Of a stretch of DNA of 64,000 nt, positions 1,635 through 64,000 are shown one piece after another. The notes below the pieces were generated by a model. That model had not been told where the DNA came from and searched no databases. It saw only the letters and a program-made list of their open reading frames with translations. This DNA is from Leptogorgia sarmentosa (taxonomy: Eukaryota), in NCBI GenBank assembly GCA_964658305.1, contig OZ210885.1:25358001-25422000 (forward strand). Reading direction: 5' to 3'. How positions within the stretch are numbered: the first letter of the stretch is position 1; every line of letters begins with the position of its first letter. Both the position numbers and the translations under genes were made by a program.

Positions 1635-2130
1635 TGTCCTCACTACGAGTGTTTTTCAGAGGCCGCAAAAGGTTTTAGAGGTTAGCAAAACTGCATTAAA
1701 TAAAACCAAAATGAAAATCAAGAGCAGCACAATTAAAGAATGTTTCAAAAAATCCCTCCTCTTGAAAATTTATAACAAGGGGTTTGTGATTGGCTTTAGG
1801 AAACAAAAATGATCATTGTGCATGACTTGTTCTTTAGAAAGTCGCATGTTCTAGACCGCACTCCGCAAAGTAGTTATTTATCCGCATTTTACAACATTTT
1901 GCAACGAAACTTCGGAATATTACTGATTTTGTGATGCTCTTTCAAGCTGTGATGAAATTTTTGTCTAGATCGAAGTTTTGTTTGTTAGGGAATAGGTCCA
2001 TTGGCTGTAGCACTTTACAATAACTCCTACAATTATGCAAAGTCCACCTTCACTGTAGTCAGTGGTAACTTTGTTCTGACATTTTGTGAACAAAATCTGA
2101 TAATTATGTATGATTAGCTACTAAATTTAC

Positions 2131-3555
2131 CTTTAGAATGCACTGCCTACTTTCAAAATCTGGCACATCCCAAGGATCACAGTGTGCCATTGCACTGACA
2201 ACATCACCTGTTGCCAGGTAATAGTAACAAGGTAATGACAAAAATGGAAAACCTGGTCCACCTTGAGCAATACTGTGGGCAATAATTTTTCCAACTATTT
2301 CTAAAAGGCCAGAAAAGACCATTTGTGGACTATGAGTTGGGCATTTCCTGTTATACTCTCCTACAAACATCATCTTCTCATTTACGAATATTGAGAATAG
2401 ATCTGTATAGAACTGTCTTAGCACGCCTCCACCATCTATTGCTGGCTGTTCATCAAATGTGACTCGTAAAGGCTGTTCTGGGTTAAATTCTGAATTCTTA
2501 TAGAAAGAAATGGCATCATTGAACAGATCATTAACATCAACAGTTAACTTTGCTGGTCTGGTCTTCATTCTCTCTTTCAGCTTTGGTAAGATTTCAGAAA
2601 GGCATGTTGGCGGCTTCTCAAGGTTTTCATCTTCAGCGGGCTCAAGCAGGCTATCAAGAGTAGAGTTAATATCACTTCCATGTCTCTGAAAAGCATGAGC
2701 AATTGTTTCTGCAGATGTACCAGGAAGCATTTCTTGTAACCAATCGTCAACAATGACATTGTTATTTGGTGGAATCTGCAAATGACCGACCTGGACTGGG
2801 CTACTATGATTGGCTAAGTCATGCATTTTGGTATGGTTGCTGTATGAAGGAGCCTGCTCTTGATCACATCTAGGCGATATTCTTTGGGATATTTGCACAT
2901 CTGGAGTACCTGTGATATTCACTCTTTCTACAGGTACTTCCTGCCTCTGTGTGGATGGTTCATCCGCAATAATTTCCAGGGCTTCACAGGGAACATTTAA
3001 ACGCACATACAACTTGCCTTGACCACACAGTTCTTTTACTTGCTTAAAACCCCATTTGTGAGTGGCTTTCACAACTGGCGTCACCACTCGATTTCTCTCC
3101 CGTTTTACAAAATCAAAAAGACCAGTTGTTATTGTTGGAAATTTCTGTTGTAGAATCTTTGAAATTTCCTTCAGTATATCTGCTTCAGAATACGATGTAC
3201 CAAGATCACAATAGCCTTTTAGTATAATCATGTCATCAACAAGTGAATAATCGGGAAGGTACAACATCGGTCATCAAATTCATCAGGTGGTGCATCAAGT
3301 AGGCACACTGATTTGATGACAACTTGGTTGGGCTTTGCTTTGGTTTTTGTCTTTTTAAAATGCCATGGATGGGATGGAGTGCTCCCTGGTCTTTTAGATG
3401 ACAATGTACTTGATGATGGAGTTGAACTTAGCAATGGACTAGATGTGTGAGGGTCTGTTGCAGACCACATGGAAGAGGTCATTCCAATTTCACGCCTGCC
3501 CTCATACTCACGACATGCTGAGGTTGTAGACCTTGATAGTAATAATGTTAGGTTC
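2131..3555 (-). pseudogene. HECT-type E3 ligase-like gene fragment (G2E3-like N-lobe, CUE/UBA-like domain)
   Basis: ORFs 3228-3569 and 2104-3267 are joined by a frameshift. They show CUE-like LQEMLPGTSAETIAHAFQRHGSDINSTLDSLL and HECT N-lobe motifs LRVTFDEQPAIDGGGVLRQFY and GKIIAHSIAQGGPGFPFL. No C-lobe exon was found. Confidence 0.75.
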
Positions 3556-29015: not shown

Positions 29016-29055
29016 CAATGTAGATAAATGGGAATTCTCCCATTGTGGCGGGGAA

Positions 29056-29418
29056 TGGTTTAATGTAAATAGTTGTACTTTATGTTAGCGTGCTATAAGG
29101 ACCGAAGTTCGAAAAGCCCACTGGGACAGAAGCACATGGAATATTTAGTTTTGGTTTATGCATGGTTCGTCGAAGAATATAGGTTAAATGTTAATGTTAT
29201 TTAGTCTTGAACGCTCATGGGACGGTGAAAATTCGTTCGGAACAGATGTGAGTTAAGTCAGTCTCTTTCAAATGTTTTTATACCAATAATTTTGCATGCT
29301 ACATAATTAACAATCCGTATATTTGTATTACAGTTTCAGATTGTTTGCTTAATAAATACTGAAATTCCAAGCGTTTTCCTGTCTACTCATCTATGACACT
29401 TCTAACCACATCGGTCCA
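29056..29418 (+). repeat. BEL 3' LTR
   Basis: TGG...CCA ends, follows GGCGGGGAA, and matches the 5' LTR. Confidence 0.9.
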
Positions 29419-31478: not shown

Positions 31479-32735
31479 TTATGCCCGCCTTCTTCGACGC
31501 ACCAAGAAAGCTGAGTCGTGCTGCAAAGTATTTTTATTGTCACTTAAACAAATATACATCAACAATATCCAATTATCATGGAGGGCCTTCGATACTGACA
31601 ATAGGGAGTGCAAGTTATCTTTTACATAACCGTCCTTGGCTTTGTCCAATTTCCATCTCCCGTGACGTTTAAACAGGCGATCCCTAACGCCAGCGTTCGC
31701 TGCAGCCGTCGCACCACCGCTCCTTAGGCTATGTAGGCCGATATTCTTTACTGGATAACCAAGAGATGTAAAAGCTGCAAGAACTATCTCTCTGGCTCGA
31801 GAGTAAGAAAGCCCTGTGGAACGTAAAACGTACTTCTTTTTGGATTTACAGAAGTAAACCGACCTGAATAATGGTGCTGTAGAACTCAAGTCTATACTCG
31901 CTCCTTTAACATATCGAGACAGAATCGAAAAAGGACACGCCACATCCTTGGTTTCTGCCATCAGGACTGTATTCCCATGGTGATAAATGTCAGTCTTACT
32001 TTGCGTTATGCTCAAGGCGACAAAACGCTCGCCCTCAGCCGAAACGAAATTAACGTCGCAGCAACGCAAACTTGCCAGCTCATTAAAACGTAAGAATGCA
32101 TAGAAACCCACCACAAACAGTGCTGCAAGTCGCAGATCGGAAAGATTCGAATTTTCTGTCGCGTACTTTTCGCAAAGCTCGGTAAGCATCTGCAGGGTTA
32201 TTGGATCCTTCTTCCGAATTGGCTTTGCGAGTTTCCTTTTCGCAGCCTCCAACAAATTTCTTACGAACCCGGATCCGCACGGATTTGGGAACCCGTACAT
32301 GCTGTGTGCCCAATTTATACTGTAAAATGCGCTTTCCAGTTTTGAATAGGGACTGTTATTCTCAAGAAGATATTCTAGGTACAATCCTACGGTGCTTGAG
32401 TTTGCTGGTAACGCCGTTAACTGCCTGTATCTGGCTGTCCAAGTCTTAAACATCCCGAACCCTCTGGAATACTTAACGGTGCTGGGAACTTTAGCCTCAA
32501 TCAACCGCTTGGTCATATTGGCGGCAAGACACTGCAAATTTGCATCACACACATTTTTTGTCACGCTTGAAAGAAAAATTTTCCCCTGTAAATTTAAAAA
32601 TAAAAGAACAGTAAGCACGGCATTCAAAAGCTTAATCACGCTGGCAAATGAGCCTGTGCGTCTACAGCAAAATGAGCACTGGACTATTAAATTCGTCAGA
32701 ACCAAATAAGGACAACTTGTTGAGTCCGTGCTCAA
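31479..32735 (-). CDS. Tyrosine recombinase (true start probably near 32590-32520)
   Basis: Catalytic set present: FLRFNE (R), QSKTD (K), LHSLRSGGAT (HxxR), HGRW, DGY (Y). Confidence 0.9.
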   Translation of the reverse strand: MSTDSTSCPYLVLTNLIVQCSFCCRRTGSFASVIKLLNAVLTVLLFLNLQGKIFLSSVTKNVCDANLQCLAANMTKRLIEAKVPSTVKYSRGFGMFKTWTARYRQLTALPANSSTVGLYLEYLLENNSPYSKLESAFYSINWAHSMYGFPNPCGSGFVRNLLEAAKRKLAKPIRKKDPITLQMLTELCEKYATENSNLSDLRLAALFVVGFYAFLRFNELASLRCCDVNFVSAEGERFVALSITQSKTDIYHHGNTVLMAETKDVACPFSILSRYVKGASIDLSSTAPLFRSVYFCKSKKKYVLRSTGLSYSRAREIVLAAFTSLGYPVKNIGLHSLRSGGATAAANAGVRDRLFKRHGRWKLDKAKDGYVKDNLHSLLSVSKALHDNWILLMYICLSDNKNTLQHDSAFLVRRRRRA

Positions 32736-34551
32736 ACACGTCCTTCCCGTCTTCTATATAAACATAGTCTGCTACGAAATCCCGAAAATTCCCGTCGCTG
32801 GTGGTAAGAAAAGGCCAAAATACGGCTGAAGGCCAGAATGGTACAGTCAACATGGCACGACACCCGGAGAAGCAAACATGCTTCACAGCCTTTGGGATTA
32901 ATTTTATGGGAGGAACCAGCCAACAAAATTCACCAAACCAGTTATAAGCAAAACAGTCAGTCCCTAATGAAAAAGGGGTAAACCATTTTGAATAAAATCT
33001 CCTTGTTTTGGCATTCTGACCGCTAGCGAGACAATCGATCGAACAGATGCCCCACTGGGCCTGAGCTAATTGGAAGTATTTTCCTTTAACGCACCAGTCG
33101 TCAGGATCTATGATCTTACTAAGATAATCCGCTGTGTCGTTAAGATCCCGTGGGATCCATTCAATATCAACCTCAATGTTATTATCTTTAGCGTGATAAA
33201 AAATATCCAGCGCGAGCTGATGCAAAGGTAATTTCATGCTGCCCGAATTAACGATCGACACAACAGCTTGGTTGTCGGTATACCATTTCACGCTATGGTT
33301 TCGTAAACTGGGAGCAAGGCTCCTTAACGCGTCTCTAATACACAACAGTTCTCTCCAGGTGGAGCTTTGTTTCCTTTCCAACTCATTCCAATTCCTGTGA
33401 AAAACTGGGGCATCGTCTAGGGATATAAATGCGGCGCAACCTGTGTCGCTTGCATCTGAGCACATGACCCGTGTGAATAAGGAGGGTGTCGGTTGTAGGG
33501 CACGAGAGTTTAGTTTTCCAGCAGAATTTTCCCAGAATGTGAGTTCCCTAATCGATTCCGCATTTAATGTCAAAAACGAATCCCAACTGCGTCTGGAATT
33601 AATCTGGGCATGGAGGGATCTGGTCATAAGTTTGCATGTCACACCAAACACCGTTAAGTTCGAGATAATTAAGCCCGTCACTGAAGCCAGCTGCCTGGCT
33701 TTCACCCTCCGCAGGGCTAGCGTTTTCGTAACAGTCTCTGACACTTTGAGGATTTTACTCAGGGGAACTGAAAGGGTCTGCAATTTTAAATTCCAGTCTA
33801 AACCAAGCCAAGTTAAACATTGAGTGGGAATCCAATTACACTTCTCTACACTGGCGACAAAGCCACTACTTTCGATATCGGCTCTCACACGGGATGCTTG
33901 CGTCAAACAAGACGAAAACGACTGCGAAGCGCCTAAACCGTCATCCAAATACACTACTATTTTGTATGCCATAGCTCGCCAGTGCCTAACCAATGGTCTC
34001 ACCACTTTGGTAAAAATGTAAGGAGCAGTGGCTAAGCCGAAAGGCAATACGGTGAATTTGTAATATTTGATGCCGCTTTTCACCTCCCATGAAAAACCTA
34101 AGAACTGCTGATCAGCCGGGAAAATATCGATATGATGATAAGCTGACTTAATGTCAAATGAAAACAAAAAATTTTGTTGGCTGTCTTGTAATGTAGTTAT
34201 CATTTCCTGTACCCCCTCGAATCGAAACTTAATTTTTTTCAGGAAACTGTTTGGGTAACGAAGATCTAAAATCAGCCTCTTCTTGCCGGATGACTGAATG
34301 GCGACCGATAAGGGGTTCACCACCGTGGGTGGTGACGAGCACTGCGCAATCGCTCCGGCTATAAATAGGTCTCTTACCGCGCTGTCCACAAACACACGAT
34401 TTTCAAAGGCTGATCTATTATTCCGAAAACACATCTGTGGTGGCGTAGTAAGGAGAGGAATGATATACCCTCTCGAAATGGTATCAACGACGAACTGGGA
34501 GGCGCCAATGTCCTTCCAGAACTGTACATGAGCGCGTAATCGCCCTTTCAC
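32662..34551 (-). CDS. Reverse transcriptase / RNase H / adenine-methyltransferase-like polyprotein
   Basis: RLILDLR, FDIKSAYHH, LPFGLATAP, YLDD; SDASDTG, STWREL, YTDNQ, ADYLS; C-terminal IDCLAS..NAK..RFYS..DCF..NW..WLVPP..VPFWPS. Uninterrupted 629-aa ORF. Confidence 0.93.
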   Translation of the reverse strand: MKGRLRAHVQFWKDIGASQFVVDTISRGYIIPLLTTPPQMCFRNNRSAFENRVFVDSAVRDLFIAGAIAQCSSPPTVVNPLSVAIQSSGKKRLILDLRYPNSFLKKIKFRFEGVQEMITTLQDSQQNFLFSFDIKSAYHHIDIFPADQQFLGFSWEVKSGIKYYKFTVLPFGLATAPYIFTKVVRPLVRHWRAMAYKIVVYLDDGLGASQSFSSCLTQASRVRADIESSGFVASVEKCNWIPTQCLTWLGLDWNLKLQTLSVPLSKILKVSETVTKTLALRRVKARQLASVTGLIISNLTVFGVTCKLMTRSLHAQINSRRSWDSFLTLNAESIRELTFWENSAGKLNSRALQPTPSLFTRVMCSDASDTGCAAFISLDDAPVFHRNWNELERKQSSTWRELLCIRDALRSLAPSLRNHSVKWYTDNQAVVSIVNSGSMKLPLHQLALDIFYHAKDNNIEVDIEWIPRDLNDTADYLSKIIDPDDWCVKGKYFQLAQAQWGICSIDCLASGQNAKTRRFYSKWFTPFSLGTDCFAYNWFGEFCWLVPPIKLIPKAVKHVCFSGCRAMLTVPFWPSAVFWPFLTTSDGNFRDFVADYVYIEDGKDVFEHGLNKLSLFGSDEFNSPVLILL

Positions 34552-34639
34552 GCTTGGGCACTCTGAGCTCTCTACATATGAGAGTAAGAGCTTTCTATAG
34601 CATGCTCGGCAGTCTCTACGTTATCAGATAAAACACACA

Positions 34640-35358
34640 AATTTGAATACTTATCTTCAGTCATCCTGGTGGCCGCAGCTATATGCTTCGGATTCATAGA
34701 GAAATCAGTTCTGCGAGGCAGGTGTGCACGAACTGCCGTGTGTCGCTACCCCGTCTGTTGGAGCAGATAGCTGAACTGGCCCGGTGGCCGTTCAAACCAC
34801 AGCTGAAGCATTTGCTCTTAACTTCTTTTCGTCATCTGAATCCTCTGCGAGGTCATCGGACTGATATTCGTCTACGGCTGACCAGCCTGCAGGGCTTTTG
34901 TCGGCAAATCTGATCAGCTTGTTTCTCTTCTCTACCAGCGACTTCTGCGTTTCTATCTCTTTTGTTGCTGCTGCCAAATCCCCTTTCAATATGTGCTTCA
35001 GTGTCGACTCCAAGCTGTCTATAGCCCCAACGTTGAATTCGTACTGTATCTTATTTCCCCTGAATTTGAAGGAACTGGCGGCTTTCGATTCCGTTTTCAG
35101 CTTCTTTATCCGAGAGGCGTTCGCATCATCTTTTTCTTCGATGCTACGCTTGAAACTGGCCAACTTGCGATCCAGTTTGCTGTCGAGAATCTGAGCGAAA
35201 TGCTCAAACAACTGTTCAGCATTGCCGCTTGCCGTCGCCATCGTATGTGAGGCAGCGGGTATTGGCTGACTGGTGATTTGGGCAGAAGCAGAGCTAGGAG
35301 TTGCGACCTCACTATCGCTCGCTAAAAGGAAACTTTCTTGGTCTAAATCCAACGCCAT
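34640..35358 (-). pseudogene. gag-like ORF1 of the DIRS-like element
   Basis: FKFRGNKIQYEFN, RNKLIRFADKSPAGWSAVDEYQSDDLAEDSDDEKKL, followed after a frameshift by the knuckle CFSCGLNGHRASSAIC. Confidence 0.8.
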
Positions 35359-38321
35359 GCAAGTAAAAAAATTCAACCGCTTGAGTTGAGGAGATGCCTT
35401 CGAATGCTGAAAATCACTTACCACACCCTTAAATACTTGCGTATTGTCCCTTATAATCCTCTCCTATTGTTCCTTTACAATGCCATACATGCACAGGCAT
35501 TCGACCATTACGTACCGCCACAAAATACATTTGTATTCAGCTTTATCGCTCCCAACGATACCCAACTCCCCCTTCGATATAACTTAATTCTTATTCAAAC
35601 TTTGTGACCTCTTCTTTCTTTACTTATCTGGTCTCACACCGTCTCTTCGAACCCCGTGCTCGGCTTATATATCCCACCATTAACATACTAATTATCATAT
35701 AACCTATTACATTATTATTAACCTACTAATTATCATATAATCTATCACATTATTAACATAATAATAATACAGCTATTTTTTCCATCACACGTTCTCACCA
35801 AAGATCATATTACAACTGTAATTGATCACATGCTGAAAAAAAAACCCAACAATGCACATGCACTAGCCACACCCCCAAACCGGTCGGAGAGGAGCAACCA
35901 GACGAAAATTCCCCTAGGCAGGGAAGGTTCCAGCACCTCAAAACTGGACTCTATTCACTTCTGCTTAACGCATCTGCATCCACATTCTTTTCCCCTGCCT
36001 TATGCTCATACTCTATCTCGTACTCCTGAAGAGTTAAACTCCATCGCAGCAACTTACGATTTTTATTTTTTTCTTGGTTTAGCCAAACCAGAGGGTTATG
36101 ATCCGTTTGCAATTTAAACTTTCTACCAAAAAGGTAATAACGGAAGGTTTCCACAGCCTGGACAATTGCCAAACATTCTTTCTCAACCGTTGCTAAATTT
36201 AACTCCCGTGGTTGTAATTTTCTACTTGCAAATGCAATGGGATTTTCTTCATTAATCTCATCTAACTGAGTCAAAATCGCCCCCATACCATACCCCGACG
36301 CATCCGTTTTTACAATAAACTCACGTTCCCAACAAGGAGGCCGCAAAACTGGAGGAGATGTTAATTTTTTTTTAATTGGGAAAAAGCATTTTGTGCTCGA
36401 TTGGTCCAGACCACTCTAGTGGGTTCGGATTTTTTAGTTAAATCAGTAAGAGGTGCGGCAATATCCGCAAAATTTCGAATAAAGCGACGATAATATCCGG
36501 CCAGACCAAGAAATGAACGAACTTGTTTCTTCGTTTGAGGCCTCGGAAATTGTAATATCGTTTCAATAAGTGCCTCTCTAGGGGTGACGGTACCTCCCCC
36601 TACCCTATATCCGATAAAATCTACCACAGACATAGCAATTTTGCATTTTGACAGCTTTGCGGATAATCGTGCTTGCCGTAGCCTACCAAACACTTGCCGC
36701 AGATGATTTAAATGCTGCTCAAAAGTTGTTGAGGTGTCAATTTCCACATCATCGATGTAGGCATCCACAAAAGACTTTAACCTATTTAACACTTTATGTT
36801 TCATCATACGTTGAAAGGTTGCTGGCGCAGTTTTCATACCAAAAGGCATAACAGTAAATTCAAATAACCCCTGGGAAGTTATAAAAGCAGATTTCGGGAT
36901 AGAATTCTCATTTAACGGGATTTGCCAATACCCCTTAGTTATATCCAAGGTCGATATATACCTAGCTTGGGCTACTTTTTCTAACATTTGATCCACACAA
37001 GGAATTGGATATGCATTGGAGAGGCTTCCAGCATTTGTAGGCCCTTTCCCACATGCCCCGCCAGCGTCACGAACCGTATTTGTTGTTCGCGCGCAAGGCA
37101 TACTTGCTGCACTTGCACGTCTAGATATTTAACACATACTCATAGCGGAGCTGGGCCTGCTACACAGGCTAATAGATCAATCACCCGCGACCGTCACAAC
37201 ACTAACAAAATTGGCTTCGGGAAGCGCGGGGCCCCTCAAAGCGCGGGGCCCCTGGCACCTGCCCATACTGCCCCCCCCCTTGATCCGGCACTGTCTGGAG
37301 GCATTAAAACGTAGCTTGCATTGATGTAATGCCTGGTAGGCCGTGTCTACCAACTCAAATGTCCTGTCATCGATACCAACATTGACAAAATATCTCCTAA
37401 GTATGTCAAGCCTTAACGTTATGCCCCCAAAACAATCTGGGTCATTTAAAGAATCTAACCTGTATATTAGGTCTTCAACAGTGTTTAAGGCAGTAACTAG
37501 ATCAGCAGTTTCAATCGGTCCTACTGTATCCCCTCCCGACACCATATTTGTCTATCATTGAGGAGACGGCATTGGAGGTCTGGACATGAATGAATTTGGC
37601 AGGGGGTTGTCTTGTGTTAGCTTAATTCATATTGGCGGAGATTTGACGCTATCGTTGAACTCCGCCAATATTCAACATGTGATGATTTTTTTTTCAACAT
37701 ATTTTTAACGTTGAAGTTGCGATGGGTGCAAAATTCGCGGCATGTTCAATGCCGGTTTAACTTCAATGTCGAAAGCACATAGGTACTAAATGTCCTATTT
37801 TACTTCAATGTCGAAAATATGTTGAATGTTCTGCATGTTCAGTGTCAGATTTATCTTTTGCGAATGATGATCGACCAGAGGCCAAAAAACGAAGGAAGAA
37901 ATGGGTCGATTTTGTTCGAAGAAGGCGATTAAACTTTGAACCGTCTGCCTCTTCAAAGATATGTTCCAGGCATTTTAATGCAGGAGATTTTACTCGGCGT
38001 TTCAGTGTTCGCTTGACTTGGCGATAAAGCGAAATTGAAAGCCATACTAAAGAGCGACGAATTCGGGATTTGTGTATATCCAACCATTTCTTTGCCAGAT
38101 TGCCAGGAAACGAAACTTTTGTCCGCAAGGGAAAAACGTCATTCTGTAAGTATTGAATTTAGTTATTATTTTGTTTTACTGTTCTCGATAATCGCTGTTA
38201 CCACTTTAGTAAACAGTTGAGAGCGTGAAAATACGTATAAGTTTAAAATACAAGTTTGTAATGCGTAGGAATTGTTAAATCTTTGACAGGTACTAACGGC
38301 GAAACGATCGAAAAGCGACCA

Positions 38322-49500: not shown

Positions 49501-52500
49501 GGGGAATTGTTTTTCAAAAGAATTTGTGCTGCATTGATGTGGTTGTCATTCAATAATTTCCCTTCAGCAAGATCAGCTTTAACATCTAACGCACTCGAAC
49601 AATCGCATGCAATATGTTTTTTGGAGGGTGTAGCTCTGTTGGAGAGGGGTCAGGCTGCTTCGTTTTCTCGTCCAGCCGGGTTCCGATGAACTCCATTCTG
49701 CGCAGCTGTGTTCTAGGTAGGAGATCCTTTAAGCCATCCCAGCATCCCGACTTGACTCACCTCAATGATGCCGAGAATTCACCTCTCCATAAAAACAGAG
49801 CTACCGTCACACCATAGGTGGAGACGAACATACGTATGACTGGCCGAAAAACAATACCAGAAATTCTTACCTGATCAACCAGCCACTTGTGGCACATAGC
49901 AAGCAAACACCAACCACTTACCGAATTACCAGCAAACTCTGACACCAATGTAGACTAATCACCCAGACTAGCCAGGGAGCACACCCGACAAGCGGGTGCG
50001 GCAATCTACACAACAAATACACGAGCAGACCGAGCTGGTACAACATGACAGACTACAACTAGCCCCCTAACACCCGGGACACAAGATAACGACACATAGA
50101 ACAGACAGGCACGGCACTGCACAGTACGGCACAAACAATACTACAGGACAACACGCAAGGACAAGCAGACGAACAATAACAAGTCTGGGATCGGGTGCGT
50201 ACCGGGCCCCATCGGCAGGCAGCCGAGTAGCTGTGACAAGACCCCCCGGCAAGCATCCAGAGACAGTGGTCGTCCTGCATGCAGCAAGCAAGCTGCAACG
50301 ACATGCGACCACCAGAGTTCGGCAGCGCCTGCAACTCTAACAGCCAACCCGTGCAGACAAGCAGCCTGGCGACACCGGCAAGCAGCCGGGCAATTTCCAG
50401 CAAGCAGCTGGCGCAACCCAAAAAAAAAAACCCCTAAGGCCTACTACCCACCACCCTCAGGGCTGGGAGGGAGGGGAGAACTCAAACGCACGGTGTGAGC
50501 AGCAATAAGCAACTGAGCCCCGCACACGCAACTCTAACCAGCATACAAGACCTCCCTTCTGATAGGCCTAAACGCCTGCCTACGCAGCCGCATATGTGCA
50601 TAATTACATATCATTACCAACCCACAACAACTCGTGCTTGATGTTAATTAATTTTATTGCATAAACACATTTAACATCTAACGCACTCGAACAATCGCAT
50701 GCAATATGTTTTTTGGAGGGTGTAGCTCTGTTGGAAAGGGGTCAGGCTGCTTCGTTTTCTCGTCAAGCCGGGTTTTGATGAACTCCATTCTGCGCAGCTG
50801 TGTTCTAGGTAGGAGATCCTTTAAGCCATCCCAGCATCCCGCCTAGACTCACCTCAATGATGCCGAGAATTCACCTCCCCAATGCCATCCTCCAGCGAAG
50901 CTGGAGAAAGACCTCACACTATGTGCCACGCCGTCTGGAGAATAACTTGGGGCGGAGTCTGGAGCGGACAGCGCGGAGTGAAGGACGTTCATCAACCGAT
51001 TGGTGACAGGAATACGTGTTAACGCCGGCGACGATCGAGAGCGGCGGATGCCACGAAAAGTCTGGCCAATCTGGTAGCCCCGCGGGTGGGATCTGGAGCT
51101 CCAAAGTCAATGTGCCATGAACGAACTGCAGCAATATAAGATGAAACCGACGATGGAGCTAAGTTCCGCGATTGGGCCAGCCAAGTCGCAAATAACATTA
51201 ATAACCACTCAGAGGACAGGAAATACGGCAAGGATAACGACAAACAAAACTGGAAGTAGGCACATTGACCAGCAGCATACACACGACGAGTGGAGGGCGC
51301 TAGACCCTGGGCCAAAAAGCCAAAACACTGGTCAATTAATAGGGTGGTACCTGACTCGATAATAGCGACGGAAGGATTGAGAGAGGGAGTTGATCGGACT
51401 GAGGAGCCATACGACGGAACTCCTGTAGGCGCAAACAAGACAAGGCATCAGCAGCAGAATTATCTCGGCCAGGGGTGTGGGCAGCTGTGAACACGAAATT
51501 ATGGTGGCAGGCCTGAAGCGTGAGCAACCGCAACAAATGCATAACGTCTGGCGACCGGGACGTGCCAGGATTCAGCACACTCACAACGGCCATATTATCA
51601 CAGAAAAACTGCACGCGAAGGCGAAACCACACAGGCCCCCACAAATGCGCTGCGACGACGATGGGGACTAATTCCAGGAAAGCAATGGACATGTGTGAGG
51701 GGAGAAAAAACCATGAGCTGCTAAACCAGTGAGTGCGCCAGAAGGCACCAAAACCGCACGAACCGGATGCGTCGGATGACACAACCAAATCAGGTAAGGG
51801 GGTAACCGAGGGAGACAGGAAAAAGGACAACCCATTCCACTCTTGGAAGAATGACAGCCACCAATGCAGATCCCGCCGAAATTCCGCATTTAAACGAATG
51901 GGGTGGTCGCGATGACAAAAACAGCACAACAAATCAATCATGCGGAGGAACGTACGCCCAGGAATAACAACGTGACAGGCATGATGCAGGGACCCAATCA
52001 AGGACTCCAAGTCACACCGAGAGCACGTCTTCTTTCGAGACCAAGATTGGAGCAGTCTGAGGATACGATCCACTTTATCCCGCGGCAACAGCGCGAACTG
52101 CTGCACCGAATCCCACTCAATACCAAGAAAATACTAACACCGAGGATGGACCTTCACACTTTTGCAAATGCAACGGCAGCCCATTGGGTGAATTGGCGGG
52201 CCCCATTGTCAAGAAATCGTCCAAGTAATGGAACAACGGGCTGACGGCATAATTATGCACCAAGATCCAGTCGACGGCGTCAGCCACTGAATTGAAAATA
52301 AACCTGCCATACGCTGTTCCAATAACTCGGTAGAGAGATACGCGTCCACTACGTCCGGGTGATCCGATGCCGATCGCATATTGGACGACCGCGAACGTAA
52401 CGAAACCCGACCAGGCTCCCAACCAACCCGGAACCCATACCAAATCCTGTCCAAAACATAGTGCTTTTTTGCCGGACGATACGCCTCCAATTCGCGAGTA

Positions 52501-54326
52501 AATTCCGCTAGAACCAGAGGGGTTACAGTAGCAACAGGAGAGTTGATGTCCTGAGGACTACGGCCTAAACAAACAAAACAATAGCGAAAACACAACATGG
52601 CCCCCATCCCATGTGAATGCATGCAGTAATTACCATAACACTGAGCACAGTGCCGTAACGAAAACATGTAATCTAAGACATTATACGTATGCAACAACTG
52701 TACAGTACCCAGCAGGTACAAAGTTATGAAACACACTAGTCCCAGGCATTAACAATGCCCGTAACACACAGTGTCCCCCGCGACCCCAATAACATGCACG
52801 GGCCTGAAGCCCCTAATGTTGAACACTCGAATTAAGAGCATGTAACTCTTTTTCTTTTTGTACATGTGCCCGCAATAGCGGTCCCAGACGTCGCAAGCAA
52901 ACCCGTCCCAATGCAGGCCTAACAGTCACGTGGACGAGGGAAGGGGGCTGTCGATGGAGGAGGACCGACTGGCCCTGTTGGAGCAAGGAGGGGACCAGCA
53001 GGCGCACCCGATGACTGGATAGGGCAATGAATATGACGATGACCGGTGCGACACCGAGGCACATCGCAGACATGAAGATACCGACACACGGCACGAGACG
53101 CTACGCACCAGCCTAAGTTCCACGAACGACAGATCGTGGTGCCAAACTGGGCCCCAGCACTCTCGCGGGAAAGAGGTCCTGACGACGTTGGCACTACCCG
53201 GGATGTGGAGGCCGTGTGGAAGTTGTACAACTCCACATGCATGCCGGACCAGTCGACAACACGGCGCGCCGCGGCGTCACGGCGTCACGGCGAAATACCT
53301 CATCGTAGTTGTACCAGGCTAAACCGCCAAACTGCGAGTGCGTGCGTAAAATTAGCAGCTGGTATCGAATCAGGTCAGCTGCCCGATGTGGCGCATACGT
53401 AACCATGACAAGCATATAAATAGCAAACGCTTGTAACCACTGAGCAATATCAGTCAAACGTCGCGGCGGCTTGGGAGCTGTGGAAACCACAACCTGCCCA
53501 TCAACGCAGATCAAGGGGGAGGTCAACCGAACTTCCGAGGGCTTCGCTAGCAAGGTAGCCAAGTCAATATACTGACCCGATACAATGTTTGACACCATCT
53601 TATCCGGGATGGGCAAAAACCCAGGGCCAACCACAAACGAAGCAGGCTGCGAACGCGCCGAAGGCAACAACATACCTGGTACAGGAACCCCAGCAGCAAG
53701 GGGATTGATCAATGGGTTGGCCAGCGGCGACGGGTCACGAGAGCAGCCCTGACTGGGTGCCAACAACAGCGACGAGGGCAACCCCGGAGCAGCCTGGAGT
53801 CTTGCAACTGACGCCAACTCTCGACCGCGAGCCTGCACCTGGGCACAGCATTAGCATGTGCTTGGGCAGACGCCTGCAACATCGCTTGGGCCTGAAGGGT
53901 AGCCTGCGCCTGAGCCCGTTCTTGAGCCATCGCCTCCTGGAGGATGGGATCTTGGCAAGTGGACGCCTGCTGAAGGATGGTATTTTCTGGCAGAGCAGGC
54001 ATCGTGACATGAGAGGAAACTGGGGGGAAACAAAATGGCGGCAGAACTGCGGACAACGAAGACGAAAAAGAAGGCCTCAAATTCAACACATTTGGCAGGC
54101 TTATCGCCGAAGTTGCAATGGGAGGCACTCCACCAGACGTAGGCCAAGGATTCGGCGGCTGATAGGGGATCGGCAGCCACGTATGCGATTCTAAACTCCG
54201 ACCAGACGACGGCCCTGAAGTAGCCGTAAGGGACGAAGACCACGCACTAGAAGCGGTAGAACTCGATGGCACTAACACAGGGAGCGGCGACGTAGAAACA
54301 GCAGCCATACTGGACGGCGAAAGCGC

Positions 54327-54674
54327 TATGACGTTATATATCCGCCAAAATTCAAGTTCTTATTTGACATGCCAGTTTTTGTATTTTACATAATGGTCAA
54401 AATATTTATATTCGACATTTAACATTTTTTAATTCGACATTCGACATTTTTAAATTCGACATTCAACTTTCTTAAATTCGACATTCAACTTTCTTAAATT
54501 CGACATTCAACTTTTTTAAATTCGACATTCAACATTTTTTGAATTCGACATTCAACTTTCTTAAATTCGACATTCAACATTTTTAAATTCGACATTCAAC
54601 TATCTTAAATTCGACATTCAACATTCGAAAATCCAACCGCAATCCAATTCTAACTATGTAACGCTGGCTCAAAT
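54327..54674 (+). repeat. Left TIR with ~22-bp tandem subrepeats (AAATTCGACATTCAACTTTCTT)
   Basis: Reverse complement of 63221-63583. Confidence 0.95.
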
Positions 54675-54788
54675 TGAGACGGAGGGCAGGCCACTGGGGC
54701 AGGCTAACAAGAGCGTGGCTACACTGAAACCACAAAATTATACTATTATTTTTTTGATATTAGAAAGCAATGTTAAATTGAATACAAA

Positions 54789-57373
54789 ATGGAAAGTGCA
54801 GCGTATTTAAGAGATATAATATTTGATGTTATCAATGCAATCGAGGTGTTCGAAAATTCTGGAGCCCGTTCATCAGATTTGCAACGTTCAATCACGAAAT
54901 TAGATTATGTTCAACGAATGGCAGTTAACCTGGAAATGGATGAATCCATTATTTCATTGATTGGACAGGCATACAGAATGCTTGAACAAATAGACGACAA
55001 CGATTCAATCCAAAATACGTACAGAGCGTCTTTGAATGAAGGGCAACAACGCGGGAGGCCTTCATATAATATAAGTGAAGAACAGCTCTCATTCTTGCTT
55101 GAGAAGGGATTTCAAGTGAAGGATATAAGTGCTATTCTCGGAGTGAGTAGTCGTACTGTTGACAGGCGTATGTCAGCTTTTGGATTAAGTGTGTCAGGTA
55201 CATAACATAAGGCTATTATTTTGTCAAGTAAGATTATATACAAAATACAAATTAAGATTAACTCAAACCAAGATTTGAAAGATAAAATTTACATGTCCTT
55301 GCACCTCCCCCCCCCCCCCCCCAGGACTTACACCCCTGTCCATCGTTCAAAATCCAATGGTTCACAGAGGTTAACCCAATTAAACCACCATGTCCCCAAA
55401 TGCACCCTACTTCGTATTTTTAGACAAGTCCTCAAGAGGAAAGTCTTGTGTTTCAAGGGGTTAAACACTTGGTAGTTACTCAGTAATAGTGACTTTTTAA
55501 CATGATAGTGAGTAACATGATCCAGTACCTGCTTTTCTTCATGACATACCGTAAATGTTAATTATTAAGAAGTGTATTTCAATATTAATAATTAAAAAGG
55601 GATGTACAGTACCATTGGTGATGAACGACTAGATGAACTTGTAGCCACTGCTACAATGCAACATCCAGCATGGGGGATAAGAATGGTGAAAGGTTACCTA
55701 ACAAGCATGGGGATAAGAGTCCAGTGGAATCGGGTAAGGCGGTCATTGCTACGCACAGATCCTGTTGGTCTAATGCAGAGATGGACAAGAATGATCAAAA
55801 GAAGAGAATACCGAGTAAAGTATCCACTATCTTTGTGGCACATTGATGGCCATCACAAGTTGATAAGGTAAATTATTATTTATATTTTGTATACAAATTA
55901 GAGTACAATTACATTCCCACAAGCCAAACTAACTAGTTCAAGACCCCGTTAATTGGTAGGTAGTGTGCTTATGTTCCCCACTTTATATTTATACTCTAGC
56001 TAATTGTCAGACAATTTTGTATGTCAATGTGGAAGGCTTGTTCACATACTGAATTACAAATGTTAATATGCATATTCATTGTTTTACTTATTTACTTTGA
56101 ACACTTTCTACTATGTTACTAGGTGGCGAATTGTGACCCATGGGGCCATAGATGGATACTCTAGACTTCCAGTGTATCTCAAAGCATCTAGCAATAATAA
56201 AGCAGAGACGGTCTTTCAATGTTTTCAGCAAGCTGTTCGTGAATACGGATTACCATCTAGGGTTAGGTCAGACAAAGGTGGGGAAAATGTACAAGTTTCT
56301 GCCTACATGCTCAACCAACGAGGTACTGGTAGAGGAAGCATGATAACAGGTGATTTTTTTCATGTTATTGCAGCAGAGTATTTTTCTGAAAAGGGTTCTT
56401 CACTTATTCTCATTAACGCATCAACTTGGATTGCATTGCCATTGCGCCGCATGTGCGCAATTGTCAAAGAAGGTTTTGCAACTTGATATGTTAAATGGCA
56501 ATGTGTGTTTATTGACCTCACATGATACTTGTTAAGGGGAATATTTTGTGCATTAAATGTGGTAAAAAAAAATGGTTATAGATATTTCTAACATAAAGTA
56601 TGCACAGGTACCAGATAGATATTTATTAAGCAACACACTGTGGTTTTAGTTATGAGATGGCATGTATTGTAACTATTAGAAATAAATTGTTAGATAGTTA
56701 TTCTAAGGTACATTTAATAAGAACATGTTCTTACTGTTGCAGGAAAGAGTACACATAATCAACATATAGAACGGTTATGGCGTGATGTATTTGGTGGATG
56801 CATTAGCTTTTTTTATGACTTGTTCTATCATTTGGAAAACCAGCTCACATTGGATCCAAATGAAGAAGCTCATTTATGGTGCCTCCACTACGTATTCCTG
56901 GATATAATTAACCAACACCTTAGGAATTGGCAAAATGCTTATATATATCACCCATTAAGTTCTGAGAATAATAGAACCCCAATGCAACTATGGGTGCAAG
57001 GTCTCCATCAAGCAAGAGGATCTGGTCGTGCTGAAGATATGGATTTTCAGGTGAGGATTGATGCTCATTTTTAGGTAATATCAGTAAAATTATTATTTCC
57101 ATGTACAAACTAAATGCCACATAAGTATATTTTTTATGTATTTTGTAAAATTTGATTCGCATGTTAATACTGTAGAGTGATCCCAATTATTATGGTGTTG
57201 ACTGGGCTGGACCAGTTCCTGAAACTGAACCTGATACCGTGGAAGTTCCAGATACGCATTGCCCCTTTACCAATGAACAACTTAGACAGTTGCCACAAAC
57301 AAATGGTATTACATATCTTGATGGTATGCAAATTTATGAACAAATACTTGCTATGTTACCATTGATGTATTAA
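54789..57373 (+). CDS. IS3/integrase-type DDE transposase, 5 exons, ~469 aa
   Basis: Exons 54789-55197, 55600-55867, 56123-56349, 56743-57050 and 57176-57373, all GT-AG, 1410 nt, no stops. HTH ISAILGVSSRTVDRRM; triad WHID, RVRSD, STHNQHIERLWRDV (D-34-E). Confidence 0.92.
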
Positions 57374-57630
57374 ATTGCAAATATGAAATATTGTAAACAA
57401 ATAGGGTCATCTTACAAAACTTTAACTTGTAACTACTGTAAGAAAGAGCAAGCTCTCATAAGGTTAAAGTGCACCTGACCCCAACATTTTTAGTTGTCTT
57501 AAGGCCTGTTCATGTGATCCAATTTTGTCAAATTCAATTGTGTTGGGTCCAATAATTAATCGCATGAACACCCTTATATTTTGTCGGATCCACTATTTTT
57601 GTTCCAGTGAACGTGCAAGGAAATTTACCT

Positions 57631-57830
57631 TTACAGCAGTTTCACGTGATTTGCGACCCCCATCATAAACGTTCGCTGATGTAATGTTTGTTTTTGACAT
57701 GCGGCATCAACTGATGTAATATAAAGTGTTAGTTGGTAGCCCTGCACCAATGTCAAAAACAAACATTACTTCAGCGAACTTTTGTGAACTTTTGTGTTGG
57801 GGGGTCGCGAATCACGTGAAACTGCTGTAA
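57631..57830. repeat. Inverted repeat / MITE between the convergent 3' ends
   Basis: TTACAGCAGTTTCACGTGATTTGCGACCCCC ... GGGGGTCGCGAATCACGTGAAACTGCTGTAA. Confidence 0.8.
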
Positions 57831-58098
57831 GGGTGTTCATTACCACACTTTAACATAAATAAAACTTTTGACACCTATGGAACTAAAACGGAGCTCCAAT
57901 TAGAATATGGCAATTCCAGGTGCTAATATTTGCAGGTTACTGTTGAGGGCGTTGAACTAGTGTTACAACATTTCTAAGGACAAGTGATATTTTGCTATCA
58001 TGTTTCTCAATCATCCAACTGAACAAAACATCAAAAAACTAGTCTGTTACTTGACAGAACGTTTAACAAAAATAGAATTCAAAGGCACAGATCTGATT

Positions 58099-61000
58099 CT
58101 ATGAGAATTCGAACCCTTTTCCTCCGTACATGAGGGCGATATCCATATACTTTCTGAAATCTTCATATTTCTGGTATCTAGTTGGAATTGTAATACCCAT
58201 GAAGCAGGTTTCTGCCATTGGCAGCTTGCACTCTGCATCAAATTTGGCCAATAGAAGCTCGTTATTATATCCAAGTGAAGTTCCTGCTGTCCAAAAACTG
58301 ACCAGGTCAACCAACTTGGTACAACCTAAAAAATATTAAACAGAATAAATTGTGGAAAGATGAGGAGGGACACTAACATGTTGGTGAGGTATATGTAAGG
58401 TGTCATGGAATAGTTAACAAAAAATCAATTGTCAGTTTGCTTTACCTGTTGCTCTAAGCTCTATTTCTTTAATGCAGCTAACAAGAAATTCAGCTGTCCT
58501 CTTGTTTTCTTCACGTGCTTCTTTATTTTCAAACACCAGTACGTCCAATACTGTTGTTGCAAGAATATTTCTCTCATCATCGGTAGGGAACACTACGTTC
58601 TTTAGTAACAGCACTCGCTTAAGAAATGATGTTAAAGAAACCTCTTCCATACCTGTAGGACATTCAATTTATTAAATTAATTAAGAATATATCGCAAGTA
58701 CATGAATAGGGAATAAACTTACTGTACACACAATTTCCACGAAAAATTTTGCTTTTATTTCTTTATTAACATCGTTTTTACATTCTTGTTTGGCTTGTCA
58801 GGCATAAAATATATTCCTACAATTAAGAGAAAAACAAAAAAATATATACCTTTTGCCAACTCTTCTAACTCATGTCGCCTTTTGTCAAGGACATGATACA
58901 TCATAAGGCTGTCGATAGTGATCTTCCTTTCGGAATTCAACTCATCCGGATCCAAACCAGCTTCCAACAAGTACGGTTCTAACGCGCTTTTCAACTCAGC
59001 ATCAACTGCTTTGTCAATTGGCAAGCTATCCAACTATATTAGATAAAAACGGTTGTATAATCATAACTTATAGCTAATCACAACTTATAGCTAATCACAC
59101 ACCAAATCAACCTGTATTAGACTTAATAAAATTTATATTATTTTAAAAAAGAAGTGGAGCATTTATTACCGTTGCTATCATATTTCTCAGCTCTAGGTCA
59201 GGCAAATCTTCAAGGGTAAGAGGTAATGACTGTGTCTCTGCTGCACTCTTGTCAGTTGCCATGTAACACTTTACTGCCGGTGATACACCATGCAAACCAG
59301 GACCACCGTGAAGTATTGAGTGTCCTAGCATTTTTCCAAGAGCTTTAAACATACCGGTTAATCTTAAAGACTGATTATGGACAGGGACGCGATGATCCTT
59401 TTGGCCTTCGAAAAATAATATTTTTTTAGAACCTGATGAAGACACGCCCTCATCTAAAATGTTCATGGCGATCGATAGATATTCTCGAACTGGTCCACTA
59501 CCAACCGCGTCTTCTTCAAAGCGAACTTTCACACCAACTCTTAAATTTGTTTTTGGGTTCTTGTAAACGCCGATCACCTCCTTCTCTAGTTCGTCAATTC
59601 CATCAAGCCTGCTGACAAATATTCTTTGCTGAGGTTTGTCCTGGATTATATTTTCCTTTCTAAATAGCTCTAAAGCAGCTTTAGGAGAATCGATTTCAGT
59701 GACGTCTTCAAAGGGAGAACGAAGTAACTGATCATCATTGACATTGTTTGACCATTCATCATCTACATTAATTACATCTAGTAAAAGAATAAACAAAACA
59801 AAAAGTGAAGTCATTATATATTCAGTGTATATTTTGTTTGCTCTCAATAATTTCTTACGGTTAGCTTAACGGTAGTGCAACCCCTAACAGCAAGAATTTG
59901 GCTCTGTTCTGAAATTATACCGGCATCATGTGTATACGGAGTATGTGATGGATTGTTTTGATTATAAATTTTCCAGATGATAATATTTATTAATCTAACA
60001 TGATTCATTAAATGAGTATTTAACAGCTGCATCATTCAAGATTGCAACTTCAGCAGATAAAATTGGAACCTATTGAGATGTAATTGTTTTACAAAGATTT
60101 ACATACAACTTACACCTTGCTCATATACTTACGTCTTACCTGGTAAAAGATTTTCAACAGCTTCTGCAACATCTCCATTTGCAGAAGACAATGCATTCTG
60201 GATATCTCTAGTAGTTGCATCAGGTACAATCTCTTGTATTATGGTTTCTGACAAACTAAATAAACATATTCAACAAACCATAAGACATACTGTACCAATA
60301 ATTATAATACCTAAAACAGTCTCAGGGCACTACAATATTATGCCGCATTACTTAAGTCTGCATTTTCCATTTAAACAGATTTCAAAAGATATTACAGTAC
60401 TTATAATGGCAATGAGGACGTACCAATTTGCATACAGTACGAACACCATTGTCTGACCACCTTGTAAAGAGTTAAGAAATAAACTTTGTGATCTTAAAGA
60501 AAAAGTCTATAATGTTATTGTGCGTACCTATCATGTCTTGTACTTTCTTCAACGGTAGTTTGTCTTTGCTATACGACTCAGAAGAAATATCAAATATAAA
60601 GTTGAGTTTTAAATTATACATAGCGTCTATGAGTATATAACACATCTCTCATAGCTCAACCTCGTACCCATGCCACAGAGTAAATAATAGATACAGAGGT
60701 CGAACTAACCGTTGTAAACACTGCGGAAGATTACATTTTCATGTACCCACCTTTTTTAAACGCCAACGGTAAAAAAATACACCATACGCATCCCAGGCAT
60801 GACATATCAGTTGTCAATATACTATATATGTTTTTTTTAGGATCAGTTGTCAATATACTATATATGTTTTTTTTAGGAAAACATATATAGTATATTGACA
60901 ACTGATACGTCATGCCTGGGATGCCTATGGTTACGCGAGCAGTTTCATCCAATGGGATGCATGCATTTAGTAACTTGCCGAGCATGCACACGAAAAAAGT

Positions 61001-63192
61001 GGGTACAATAGTTCGACCTGTGTATCAATCTCGTTCCCCGAGCCTGCGATCATTGGGAAGGAAACGAAGGCTCTGGGATAATCCGTTTCAGGAAGGAATC
61101 TGATTGGTCGTTGGAATGGCATGCGTAATTCAAATCGACATACAATTTTCTGTATGTCTGATTCGGATTATCCCAGAGCCTTCGTTTCCTTTCCCAAGGA
61201 TCGCAGGCTCGGGGAATGAGATTGTCTCTGTATCTATTATTTACTCTGTGCCCAGGCTCTTCGCTCTTGTGGAGTAACCTGGGTTTCTCAAAGCTACAGT
61301 ATAAAGAACAGGTTGCAATAGTATACGCGATTTGAATATGACTGTTATTTTTAGAAAACAAGTTGTTACTTCTTCATTATTTTTTTATGAATCATGTCCA
61401 AGCTTTAAACAATATCAGTAGTACACTGCAAACCATGAAGCATGTGTGTACACCAATTTTCTAACTAATATGACAGTATCATACCTTATTAGAACCTCCA
61501 GTATTATGAGTTTCTGTATGCTCCCTTATGCTGCTAAAGGGAATTTCAGCATTGCAAACAAAGCACTTCAGAACAGGTTCAGTAACCTTTAATTAAAAAT
61601 GTAATTTCAGTTTTAGTTCACAATCCGCATGGTGAGCAATGTCAGCCTTAAAGAATTTTATCTGGTTATATCTATTAAGTTGCAAGACACTCCCCTTCAT
61701 GTATAAAATCGTTTAGCAGTACTTATGCTATGTAAGTACATTGACATTTAATTGTGGGTGCAATGAGATGTAACAGGTTAATATGTATTATGGTAATTGA
61801 TGATCCGATAACAGTGGACTTAGCCAGCACTTGAAATATACCCTTCCAAAGGGTGTCAAAATAATGAGACTTGACACTTCCAGAAAATTATCGAGAACAG
61901 ACATTATGATATTTTTAAACATTTTGTATCCTCAATTAGAGTGCACATAGCAACAGGTTCCATTGCTTCAATCTATTATAAGTTTTTAGCTGATAAAGTC
62001 ATTGAAAAGTTACAAAACACAGGATTTTTATCTGTCTAGTTTTACAAATACCCATCCAACAAGCTGGTGGACAGACCTCTGGCTATGCCCATGTCATATA
62101 CAGAACTATGAAGTAAGAATATTGTTATTAAATGTATAGAAAAATGAAATACCTGACTTGAGTCATGAGCACCTAAATGACCTTGTTCATTTTCTTCAAC
62201 ATTTTCAGCTGTTAATCCCAAAGGTATATCTCTCTGCACTGGCCGTAAATACACCTTCGCTTGACCACACAAAGCTTTAAGTCTGCCAGCTGTGTGTGGC
62301 CCATTTACCACATGGAAACCACCATCCAATCCACCACCCCTTTGGTAAAGAAGGAAATCGAACCCTCCTACCTCTGAAAGTTGTGGATAGTTTTCCACAA
62401 TTGTATCATAGATAGGTTCCCCATTGTCAATTAATGCAATGGATTTGTCACCAAGGCATGCGTTTGATAGGTCCGTTCTTTCCTTTATATTCTGTGGTGG
62501 CCGTTCTGCATCTTTTGATGCAAGGCAAACAAATTTTATAGTACATGTCTGTGCTTTCTTCCTTTTCAATTGTCTGGATTTGGAACTAGATGAACTTGAT
62601 CGTTTTCCAAAATTGAACAACCTGCGTTGTTCAGCAATTACCGATACATTGTGATTTTGTGAACGTAAGTTAGAGGAAGTGCCACTTGTTAAGGGAGTTG
62701 AAACTCCCACTTGTTGTGGGGTCTGAATAGGAGACTGTACAGGCACAGGCATTACTTGTTGAACATTTGGGGCAGGAGAACCTACGGAAAAGAAATTAGC
62801 AAAAAAAGTTAACAAAAAAAATAAACATATTCTATTTTATTTTCATATATGTTTTATTTTCACTATATAGTGAATTCTTTGTATGTGAACATTCAGGCTG
62901 TATTTACCCTTATTTAGTCCCTTATATTCATTCACAATCGCGAACCAGAAAAGTGTTAGATATTCAGTTAGTTTCAAAATGTAAAGGATTTGTTTTACAT
63001 AACGGACTTGACATGGTCTTTCAAGATTCAAATATATTGATTGATATAATCAGAATAGTGCATTATACAAATACAATACATAATAAACTCACCACTATTC
63101 TGAGACTGTTCCCAGTTCGAAATTCGATTCGCAAGCATGTATAGCGTGTCTTTGACTTCGTTCATTTCTGCAGCACGTCGATTGGATGCCAT
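58099..63192 (-). CDS. HECT-type E3 ubiquitin ligase (G2E3-like HECT), 9 exons, ~737 aa
   Basis: Exons 63192-63093, 62781-62153, 61586-61485, 60568-60528, 60255-60140, 59777-59170, 59033-58850, 58652-58446 and 58325-58099: GT-AG, phase-compatible, 2214 nt, no stops. CFVC-x11-H-x3-H finger, CUE-like IQEIVPDATTRDIQNALSSANGDVAEAVENLL, VRFEEDAVGSGPVREYL, GKMLGHSILHGGPG, FWTA, LPMAETCF. The small exons are manual predictions. Confidence 0.85.
61026..61224. mobile_element. Short MITE in a HECT-gene intron
   Basis: ~60-bp TIR CAATCTCGTTCCCCGAGCCTGCGATC / GATCGCAGGCTCGGGGAATGAGATTG. Confidence 0.85.
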
Positions 63193-63220
63193 TACCGCAA
63201 ATTTGCAAACACGTGCGTCT

Positions 63221-63583
63221 ATTTGAGCCAGCGTTACATAGTTAGAATTGGATTGCGGTTGGATTTTCGAATGTTGAATTTCGAATTCAAAAAAGTTGAA
63301 CGTCGAATTTAAGATAGTTGAATGTCGAATTTAAAAATGTTGAATGTCGAATTTAAGAAAGTTGAATGTCGAATTCAAAAAATGTTGAATGTCGAATTTA
63401 AAAAAGTTGAATGTCGAATTTAAGAAAGTTGAATGTCGAATTTAAAAATGTCGAATTTAAGAAAGTTGAATGTCGAATTAAAAAATGTTAAATGTCGAAT
63501 ATAAATATATTGACCATTATGTAAAATACAAAAACTGGGATGTCAAATAAGAACTTGAATTTTGGCGGATATATAACGTCATA
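63221..63583 (-). repeat. Right TIR of the IS3EU-like element
   Basis: Reverse complement of 54327-54674, with a slightly different subrepeat array. Confidence 0.95.
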
Positions 63584-64000
63584 AAGCACCAAGTCAGCCC
63601 CAGAAGGACCCACACTCGTTGTCGAAAGCGAAGATGAAGCCGGAGACAAATCATCGCTCGTAACCGGAGGAAACGAAAAATCCGTGCCCGGGAGACTTGC
63701 TAGGCTGTTATTGGTAAGCCGAGGCATAGATAACAACGAGCACAGTACCCTTAAGATACCAGACACTCAAGCAACAAAAAAAAAATTTTTTTAACAGTTC
63801 CAGACAAACCCAAGAAAGAGAACTCAAACGCACCGTGTGAGCAGCAATAAGCAACTGAGCCCCGCACACGCAACTCTAACCAGCATACAAGACCTCCCTT
63901 CTGATAGGCATAAACGCCTGCCTACGCAGCCGCATATGTGCATAATTACATATCATTACCGACCCACAACAACTTGTGCTTGATGTTAATTAATTTTATT

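Follow-up and report, generated by a model that had tools for sequence, protein, structure and literature searches.

A two-gene IS3EU/GingerRoot element

Within a 64,000-nucleotide stretch of the Leptogorgia sarmentosa genome (contig OZ210885.1, positions 25,358,001 to 25,422,000; hereafter the window, whose own coordinates are used throughout) lies a DNA transposon of the IS3EU/GingerRoot type that carries, besides its transposase, a spliced gene for a HECT-type ubiquitin ligase. The two genes are arranged tail-to-tail within one 9,257-bp element and both frames are open; the ligase gene, intact and conserved, moves together with that of the transposase. The element and its outer features are:

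54327..63583, unstranded: IS3EU/GingerRoot-type DNA transposon, 9,257 bp, TA..TA termini, inverted repeats
54327..54677, plus strand: left terminal inverted repeat (TIR), with tandem units inside; 90% over 373 columns against the right end
63218..63583, minus strand: right TIR; the ligase start codon lies 26 bases to the inside of the repeat
54789..57364, plus strand: DDE transposase, five predicted exons, open over 469 aa, catalytic D219/D276/E311

The outermost 20 bases of the element form perfect inverted repeats, each TIR is ~350 bp long and starts with TA, and the bordering 6-mers agree at five of six positions, a 6-bp target duplication with one mismatch. Two transposase exons match Pfam rva_4 (E 5.7e-29 and 3.4e-31), and exon 1 encodes a helix-turn-helix. 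With its TA..TA inverted repeats, 6-bp duplication and IS3/integrase-type DDE transposase, the element belongs to IS3EU/GingerRoot; as described in the accessible portions of PMC10045372 and PMC6839031, these elements, classed in Repbase, share its termini, duplication size, TIRs and a transposase of this type without HHCC. It differs from them in the added HECT ligase, spliced and tail-to-tail with the transposase, and from GingerRoot in the length of its repeats (~350 bp versus 100-150 bp). The structure and function of IS3EU elements are called largely unexplored in the available part of a 2025 paper (PMC11934779). The element moved recently, as indicated by an empty site, where a contig of run X4 fuses the left flank to right-flank sequence, together with contigs of run X8 in which the element's left end adjoins other DNA.

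The C-terminal tail of the transposase (57176-57364, plus strand), beyond the Pfam model, carries a conserved G-x-D-W-x-G-P plus V-x-V-P pattern, a candidate binding peptide, and a palindrome (57627-57834) sits between the transposase and ligase genes. The repeat hosting the insertion (50476-54326 and 63584-64000) is multi-copy, and its terminal segment is present at both 50476-50658 and 63818-64000; its frames are without a Pfam match, and from their motifs we take them to be DIRS-like.

Structure of the ligase gene

The ligase gene model consists of nine exons, all on the minus strand:

63093..63192, minus strand: exon 1, putative N-terminal amphipathic helix pattern, kept in close relatives
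62153..62781, minus strand: exon 2, low-complexity linker, RxLF-type motif, basic cluster resembling a nuclear localization signal (NLS), beta-grasp domain
61485..61586, minus strand: exon 3, CxxC-x11-HxxxH zinc finger with an RNF125-C2HC-like face, without the UBZ aspartate
60528..60568, minus strand: exon 4, 41-nt micro-exon on which the frame depends
60140..60255, minus strand: exon 5, CUE/UBA-fold domain
59170..59777, minus strand: exon 6, acidic linker followed by the first part of the HECT N-lobe
58850..59033, minus strand: exon 7, HECT N-lobe
58446..58652, minus strand: exon 8, end of the HECT N-lobe
58099..58325, minus strand: exon 9, HECT C-lobe, including Cys703 and, four residues from the C-terminus, a Phe

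A preliminary description of this DNA had proposed that two short exons encode a finger and a three-helix pattern. Both are present, with canonical splice ends and the expected products: exon 3 (61586-61485) is 102 nt with AG/GT ends and phase 0-0, and exon 5 (60255-60140) is 116 nt with phase 2-1; the compact segment that it singled out in exon 2 lies in 62781-62153. The phase is 0 at the end of exon 3 but 2 at the start of exon 5; joined directly, the two exons run into a stop at aa 289, and models with direct exon 3-exon 5 splicing or with both exons skipped were rejected, the frame being broken in each. The micro-exon at 60568-60528 (41 nt, phase 0-2) restores a single open frame of nine exons and 737 aa. 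Thirty-five AG..GT candidates fit the required phases and the window sequence alone does not single this one out; an intron-free relative, L001, has a homologous peptide at the same place.

L001 (a 2,382-bp contig) is intron-free at seven of the eight junctions and reads into the GT at the eighth donor. It is 62% identical to the window ligase over 680 columns and includes the peptides of finger, micro-exon and CUE; because it holds all three while intron-free, we conclude that relatives splice these segments in, and the exon skipping that the preliminary description named as counting against it is not seen there. A protein, P0004, shares 98.9% identity with L001 over 269 residues and departs from it at the expected start of intron 3; the two may be read as splice states of one relative. 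In contigs of two runs guessed to be RNA, splice joints were not found and some contigs cross introns, which makes them uninformative on expression. Intron 3 of the window gene holds two palindromic, high-copy inserts resembling miniature inverted-repeat transposable elements (60781-60931 and 61026-61224), at which contigs skip or stop.

The module order of the window ligase recurs in an annotated octocoral protein (P0009). The idea that the modules are encoded exon by exon holds in part: finger and CUE have exons of their own, but exon 2 holds long linkers besides the beta-grasp domain, and finger and beta-grasp domain share a reading frame in 11 of 37 related loci. The two ends of the CUE exon differ in phase (2-1), which leaves classical symmetric exon shuffling of this domain unsupported.

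The coding segments of the ligase are under purifying selection and are more than chance patterns. Against L001, proportions of nonsynonymous and synonymous differences (pN/pS) are 0.16/0.79 for the finger, 0.25/0.57 for CUE and 0.16/0.69 for the exon-2 domain, with pN of 0.35-0.42 in the linkers. Nonsynonymous divergence (dN) is 0.18 for the beta-grasp domain, 0.17 for the finger, 0.30 for CUE and 0.19 for HECT, and 0.48-0.61 for the linkers; overall, across 640 codons, dN is 0.24 against a synonymous divergence (dS) of 1.74 that is near saturation.

Domains of the ligase

The ligase very probably has a beta-grasp domain, a zinc finger and a CUE domain ahead of HECT, the three folds being predicted from models. 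The first of these defines the main addition of this work, a beta-grasp family of more than 1,000 clusters uncatalogued in Pfam:

62216..62557, minus strand: predicted beta-grasp (ubiquitin-like) domain, aa 109-222, of a family without a Pfam model

Its family profile recovers 1,108 clusters at E <= 0.001; among Atlas clusters, Cnidaria, Chordata and Mollusca are represented most often. The window domain has no Pfam match, beta-grasp families are absent among the Pfam matches for 114 members, and neither the domain profile nor single exons found a significant match among PDB sequences. Structure prediction supports the ubiquitin-like fold proposed earlier for exon 2: the AlphaFold2 model (114 rows) has a predicted local distance difference test score (pLDDT) of 92.5 and a five-strand sheet with an additional helix after strand 1. 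SAP18, FERM F1, RA, RING1B RAWUL, USP7 UBL, PB1 and UBX dominate its Foldseek rows, and VIA-align (48,161 chains) ranks the TBK1 ULD first (Z 7.3, root-mean-square deviation (rmsd) 2.4 A, 75 aligned residues), followed by Ufm1 (Z 7.2). Among the 50 best VIA rows, 47 are ubiquitin-like by title in our own classing (2kk8, 2l1a and 7aor_av being unclassable), and the BFVD fold search returned ubiquitin-like rows, weak ones only. We call the fold because many matches agree, rather than because of one strong match. No named beta-grasp family (RA, PB1, UBX, RAWUL, FERM, ULD) stands out, the Z values being tied and sequence matches absent.

The predicted five-strand beta-grasp is shared with integral ubiquitin-like domains (TBK1/IKK ULD, RAWUL, SAP18, RA, FERM F0/F1, UBX), but identity to these is 5-15%, with no Pfam or PDB sequence match, and the window family is set apart by its extra helix between strands 1 and 2 and by near-invariant FxCL, P, L and GLG. 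Lying inside the protein, the domain terminates in an RPxQ motif and lacks the C-terminal di-glycine of a conjugatable modifier; by analogy it would be an interaction domain, neither modifier nor known ubiquitin reader.

In the model of the corresponding L001 segment, a beta-beta-alpha finger is followed by a disordered linker and three helices. Of 45 loci having 800 nt downstream, 37 show the finger after the beta-grasp domain, at a distance of 17-48 residues (35 frames), and the finger is present in all 20 loci with both a beta-grasp domain and a HECT N-lobe (two fingers being incomplete). The preliminary description had called it a UBZ, and in fold and ligand spacing it does resemble UBZ3 (Pol eta), UBZ4 (RAD18) and UBZ2 (FAAP20); the ubiquitin-binding part of that claim fares worse. 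The accessible text of PMC4267625 attributes the ubiquitin contact to the UBZ helix Asp, within D-A-L in FAAP20 and Pol eta, and that of PMC3157352 has RAD18 bind ubiquitin through D221. Across 53 distinct fingers (counted after removal of five locus matches without the full motif), the corresponding position, two residues past the first zinc His in a register deduced from spacing and a Pol eta alignment, is Asp in one and Glu in 11, the window copy included; D-A-L and DxHxA occur in none.

What the fingers conserve is another face: positions H-6 and H-3 are hydrophobic in 53 of 53, and H-2 is Arg or Lys in 46. An ungapped match puts these three in register with L109, M112 and R113 of RNF125, which pack on the RING according to the part of PMC4944129 available, although H-3 is also a generic core position of fingers. 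Pfam zf_C2HC_14 matches 18 of 31 fingers (best E 9e-6), and zf_UBZ matches nine, more weakly; the window finger is below both cut-offs (16.2 bits for zf_C2HC_14, cut-off 25). Compared with the C2HC finger of RNF125/RNF114 (zf_C2HC_14; PMC4944129, same part), spacing and packing-face residues are alike, but the window ligase has no RING and its last zinc ligand is His. From these sequence patterns, the finger most likely serves for packing or for binding a partner, and is probably not a ubiquitin reader.

For exon 5, the CUE/UBA fold proposed earlier is supported: Pfam CUE matches seven of ten homologous segments (best E 2e-8), and Tollip CUE is the top Foldseek row for the L001 finger-CUE model (probability 0.99, E 0.15). 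The VIA rows for that model are mostly of UBA/CUE type and all cover the CUE part alone, and a CUE profile weakly retrieves UBA domains of ubiquilin, USP28 and Dsk2. Like the CUE/UBA domains of Tollip, Cue2 and EDD, the predicted segment has three helices, an invariant Pro past helix 1 and a di-leucine in helix 3; this Pro and di-leucine, conserved across the CUE segments, are presumably the ubiquitin patch. The loop is IVP, ICP or MCP in most transposon copies, compared with the MFP typical of CUE domains. The domain is optional among relatives, being found by its own profile in six of 20 loci, a count that may miss divergent copies; on a tree of 48 beta-grasp rows its presence requires three changes, and a single gain is not shown. 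It is likely the ligase's one ubiquitin binder, which leaves little of the stack of ubiquitin readers first envisaged. A SUMO-interacting-like motif behind CUE was discarded (two of 12 proteins, both close kin; shuffle frequency 0.12-0.15).

Exon 9 matches Pfam HECT above the cut-off (E 3.2e-7), and the catalytic Cys, Cys703 in the window ligase, is kept in all ten C-lobes found among relatives; judged from sequence, the enzyme is probably active through this residue. It shares with the class IV HECT ligases G2E3 and GL-Metazoa (PMC3673628) a highly divergent HECT in invertebrate animals, but lacks the PHD/RING fingers of G2E3, and PMC3673628 mentions neither transposons nor CUE.

Related loci and linkage to the transposase

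The closest named relatives of the ligase are octocoral proteins annotated as uncharacterised or UPL2-like. Transposase sequence was found in 11 of 64 related loci, always downstream and on the opposite strand, and in all eight loci with a HECT match and at least 4.5 kb downstream; five long loci have neither a HECT nor a transposase match. The order beta-grasp-finger-HECT is fixed among relatives. L049 and L034 are bounded elements, the former complete with a perfect 6-bp duplication (6/6), and locus L060 was dismissed as a phage false positive. In L050 (10001-12740) and L051, a partial beta-grasp domain and finger lie upstream of, and on the same strand as, a different DDE-like transposase frame, with HECT not matched: either a nested insertion or a second carrier is possible.

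Two further features of these proteins bear on function. In one clade, SAMs occur on both proteins: the transposase of L049 has an N-terminal SAM-like domain (L049:7542-7811, minus strand; Pfam E 8e-4, below the cut-off), and the ligases L047 and L064 have an N-terminal SAM (Pfam E 3e-4 and 1.5e-3, again below cut-offs); transposase and ligase SAMs are 33% identical (pairwise E 1e-7). Window-type elements have a conserved helix pattern at the ligase N-terminus and a helical region at that of the transposase. A basic K[KR]x[KR] motif precedes the beta-grasp domain in 57 of 99 homologues, versus 7.5% of random windows, and may mediate nuclear import.

The window contains two further traces of such ligases, one of them a second copy:

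2104..3330, minus strand: second ligase copy, divergent and frameshifted, with partial beta-grasp, CUE and HECT N-lobe and no finger

This copy is 22% identical to the gene model (E 9e-17). The echo of the exon-2 segment reported at 2104-3267 is real but weak, with a family-profile E of 0.1 and the first strand in a different frame; CUE is recognised there at Pfam E 0.0017, and the finger was not found. A third remnant (22798-23016, plus strand) is a lone C-lobe segment that retains the Cys motif and shares 46% identity with the last ligase exon.

Other elements in the window

The window DNA is AT-rich and dense in repeats. A BEL/Pao-type long terminal repeat (LTR) element at 23559-29418 has stops in its frames and appears young because its 340-bp LTRs are 99.7% identical. 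At 31479-35463 (minus strand), a DIRS-like element combines reverse transcriptase and RNase H with an adjoining tyrosine-recombinase-like frame. A Tc1-type element occupies 8823-10416; its inverted repeats are 232 bp long and its DDE_3 transposase frame is open. A PHD-finger frame at 16421-18703 is opposite fragments of an unclassified transposase-like frame.

Proposed function of the ligase

The best overall explanation, to which we would give about even weight, is that the HECT ligase is the element's own accessory enzyme, acting on the transposase complex and likely nuclear; that its target is the transposase itself we favour more tentatively, on sequence grounds. Through its N-terminal module (a helix in the window, SAM in another clade) the ligase would attach to the transposase, beta-grasp domain and finger together would serve as a protein-binding platform, CUE would hold ubiquitin on the ubiquitin-conjugating enzyme (E2), the ligase or the growing chain, and ubiquitination may set the moment at which the transpososome is removed or turned over. 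Such docking on the transposase is favoured because related SAMs occur on ligase and transposase and because of the N-terminal helices, and we rank it ahead of a host silencing target and, after that, of recruitment by two ubiquitin readers.

Several points weigh against this explanation or the folds on which it draws. The SAMs compared come from different elements of another clade, the window element has none, and the SAM-like segment of the L049 ligase itself is without a Pfam match. No Foldseek match reaches E < 0.001, structure scores are modest, and the best Z values, 7.3 and 7.5, are under the VIA tool's guide of Z 8. The window CUE scores 19.8 bits against a Pfam cut-off of 21.1, and CUE/UBA folds include domains that do not bind ubiquitin (EF-Ts, NAC, SMARCAD1 CUE1). 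Divergence is strong in the HECT N-lobe, for which HACE1 is the best HECT match in the PDB (E ~1), and the HECT of human G2E3 is described as non-functional (PMC3673628).

A further adverse point is that fungal IS3EU elements bear other enzymes thought to act on the host: in the available part of PMC12730594, these are TET/JBP dioxygenases, proposed to permit escape from methylation silencing, and alpha-kinases opposite the transposase. By this precedent the platform of the window ligase could recruit a host silencing or chromatin factor for destruction and so keep the element expressed. The NLS-like motif, the size and diversity of the beta-grasp family, and the nuclear adaptors SAP18 and RING1B RAWUL among its top Foldseek rows are all in line with such an anti-silencing role; as generic beta-grasp domains, these fold neighbours are nevertheless uninformative on function, and the related SAMs on both element proteins are left unexplained, so that we consider this role rather unlikely, though the strongest of the alternatives.

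The preliminary description instead saw finger and CUE as readers of ubiquitinated targets such as chromatin or repair proteins; on this view, the two would recruit the ligase to sites of that kind, for instance the excision break. The CUE fold is supported, the finger has UBZ3 spacing and its model finds RAD18 UBZ as the sole finger-type Foldseek match (weak: rmsd 2.1 over 31 columns, probability 0.77, E ~1), and zf_UBZ matches and Glu at the UBZ Asp position, in the minorities of fingers given above, agree with it. The near-absence of that Asp and of its motifs, the better E-values of zf_C2HC_14, the difference at the UBZ position between the near-identical P0004 and L001 (Glu versus Lys) and the restriction of CUE to six of 20 loci make the proposal improbable, and nothing points specifically to chromatin or repair targets. 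Least probable is a passenger or catalytically dead scaffold, that is, a captured host ligase gene without a role in transposition: the accessible text of PMC6839031 does report gene fragments carried by GingerRoot elements, and a G2E3 HECT described as non-functional would suit such a fate, but the low dN relative to dS, the invariant Cys and an orientation of ligase and transposase that is fixed across distant elements all speak for a retained function.

Significance

The words "HECT" and "ubiquitin" are absent from the searched text of PMC10045372, PMC12730594, PMC6839031 and PMC11934779, and "transpos" is absent from PMC3673628, PMC2837046 and PMC11353290. We did not find the IS3EU-HECT pairing or the beta-grasp domain in the published literature, in a search that lay outside supplements (including that of PMC10045372) and Repbase entries.

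It is possible, though we advance it with less assurance than anything said above of the element's own enzyme, that invertebrate IS3EU/GingerRoot elements are two-gene systems in which the ligase docks on the transposase by matched N-terminal modules and offers a platform of beta-grasp domain and C2HC-type finger, and that they are the source of many "G2E3-like" genes. If so, the matched modules would be SAM with SAM in one clade and helix with helical bundle in the window, and the transposon would run its own ubiquitin switch. A large beta-grasp family missing from Pfam is now defined, and the domain map obtained here would mark the widespread, unannotated "HECT" genes of invertebrates as transposon equipment. 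With an intact, insertion-polymorphic 9-kb element in which both frames are open, control of the transposase or disarming of the host by ubiquitination becomes directly testable.

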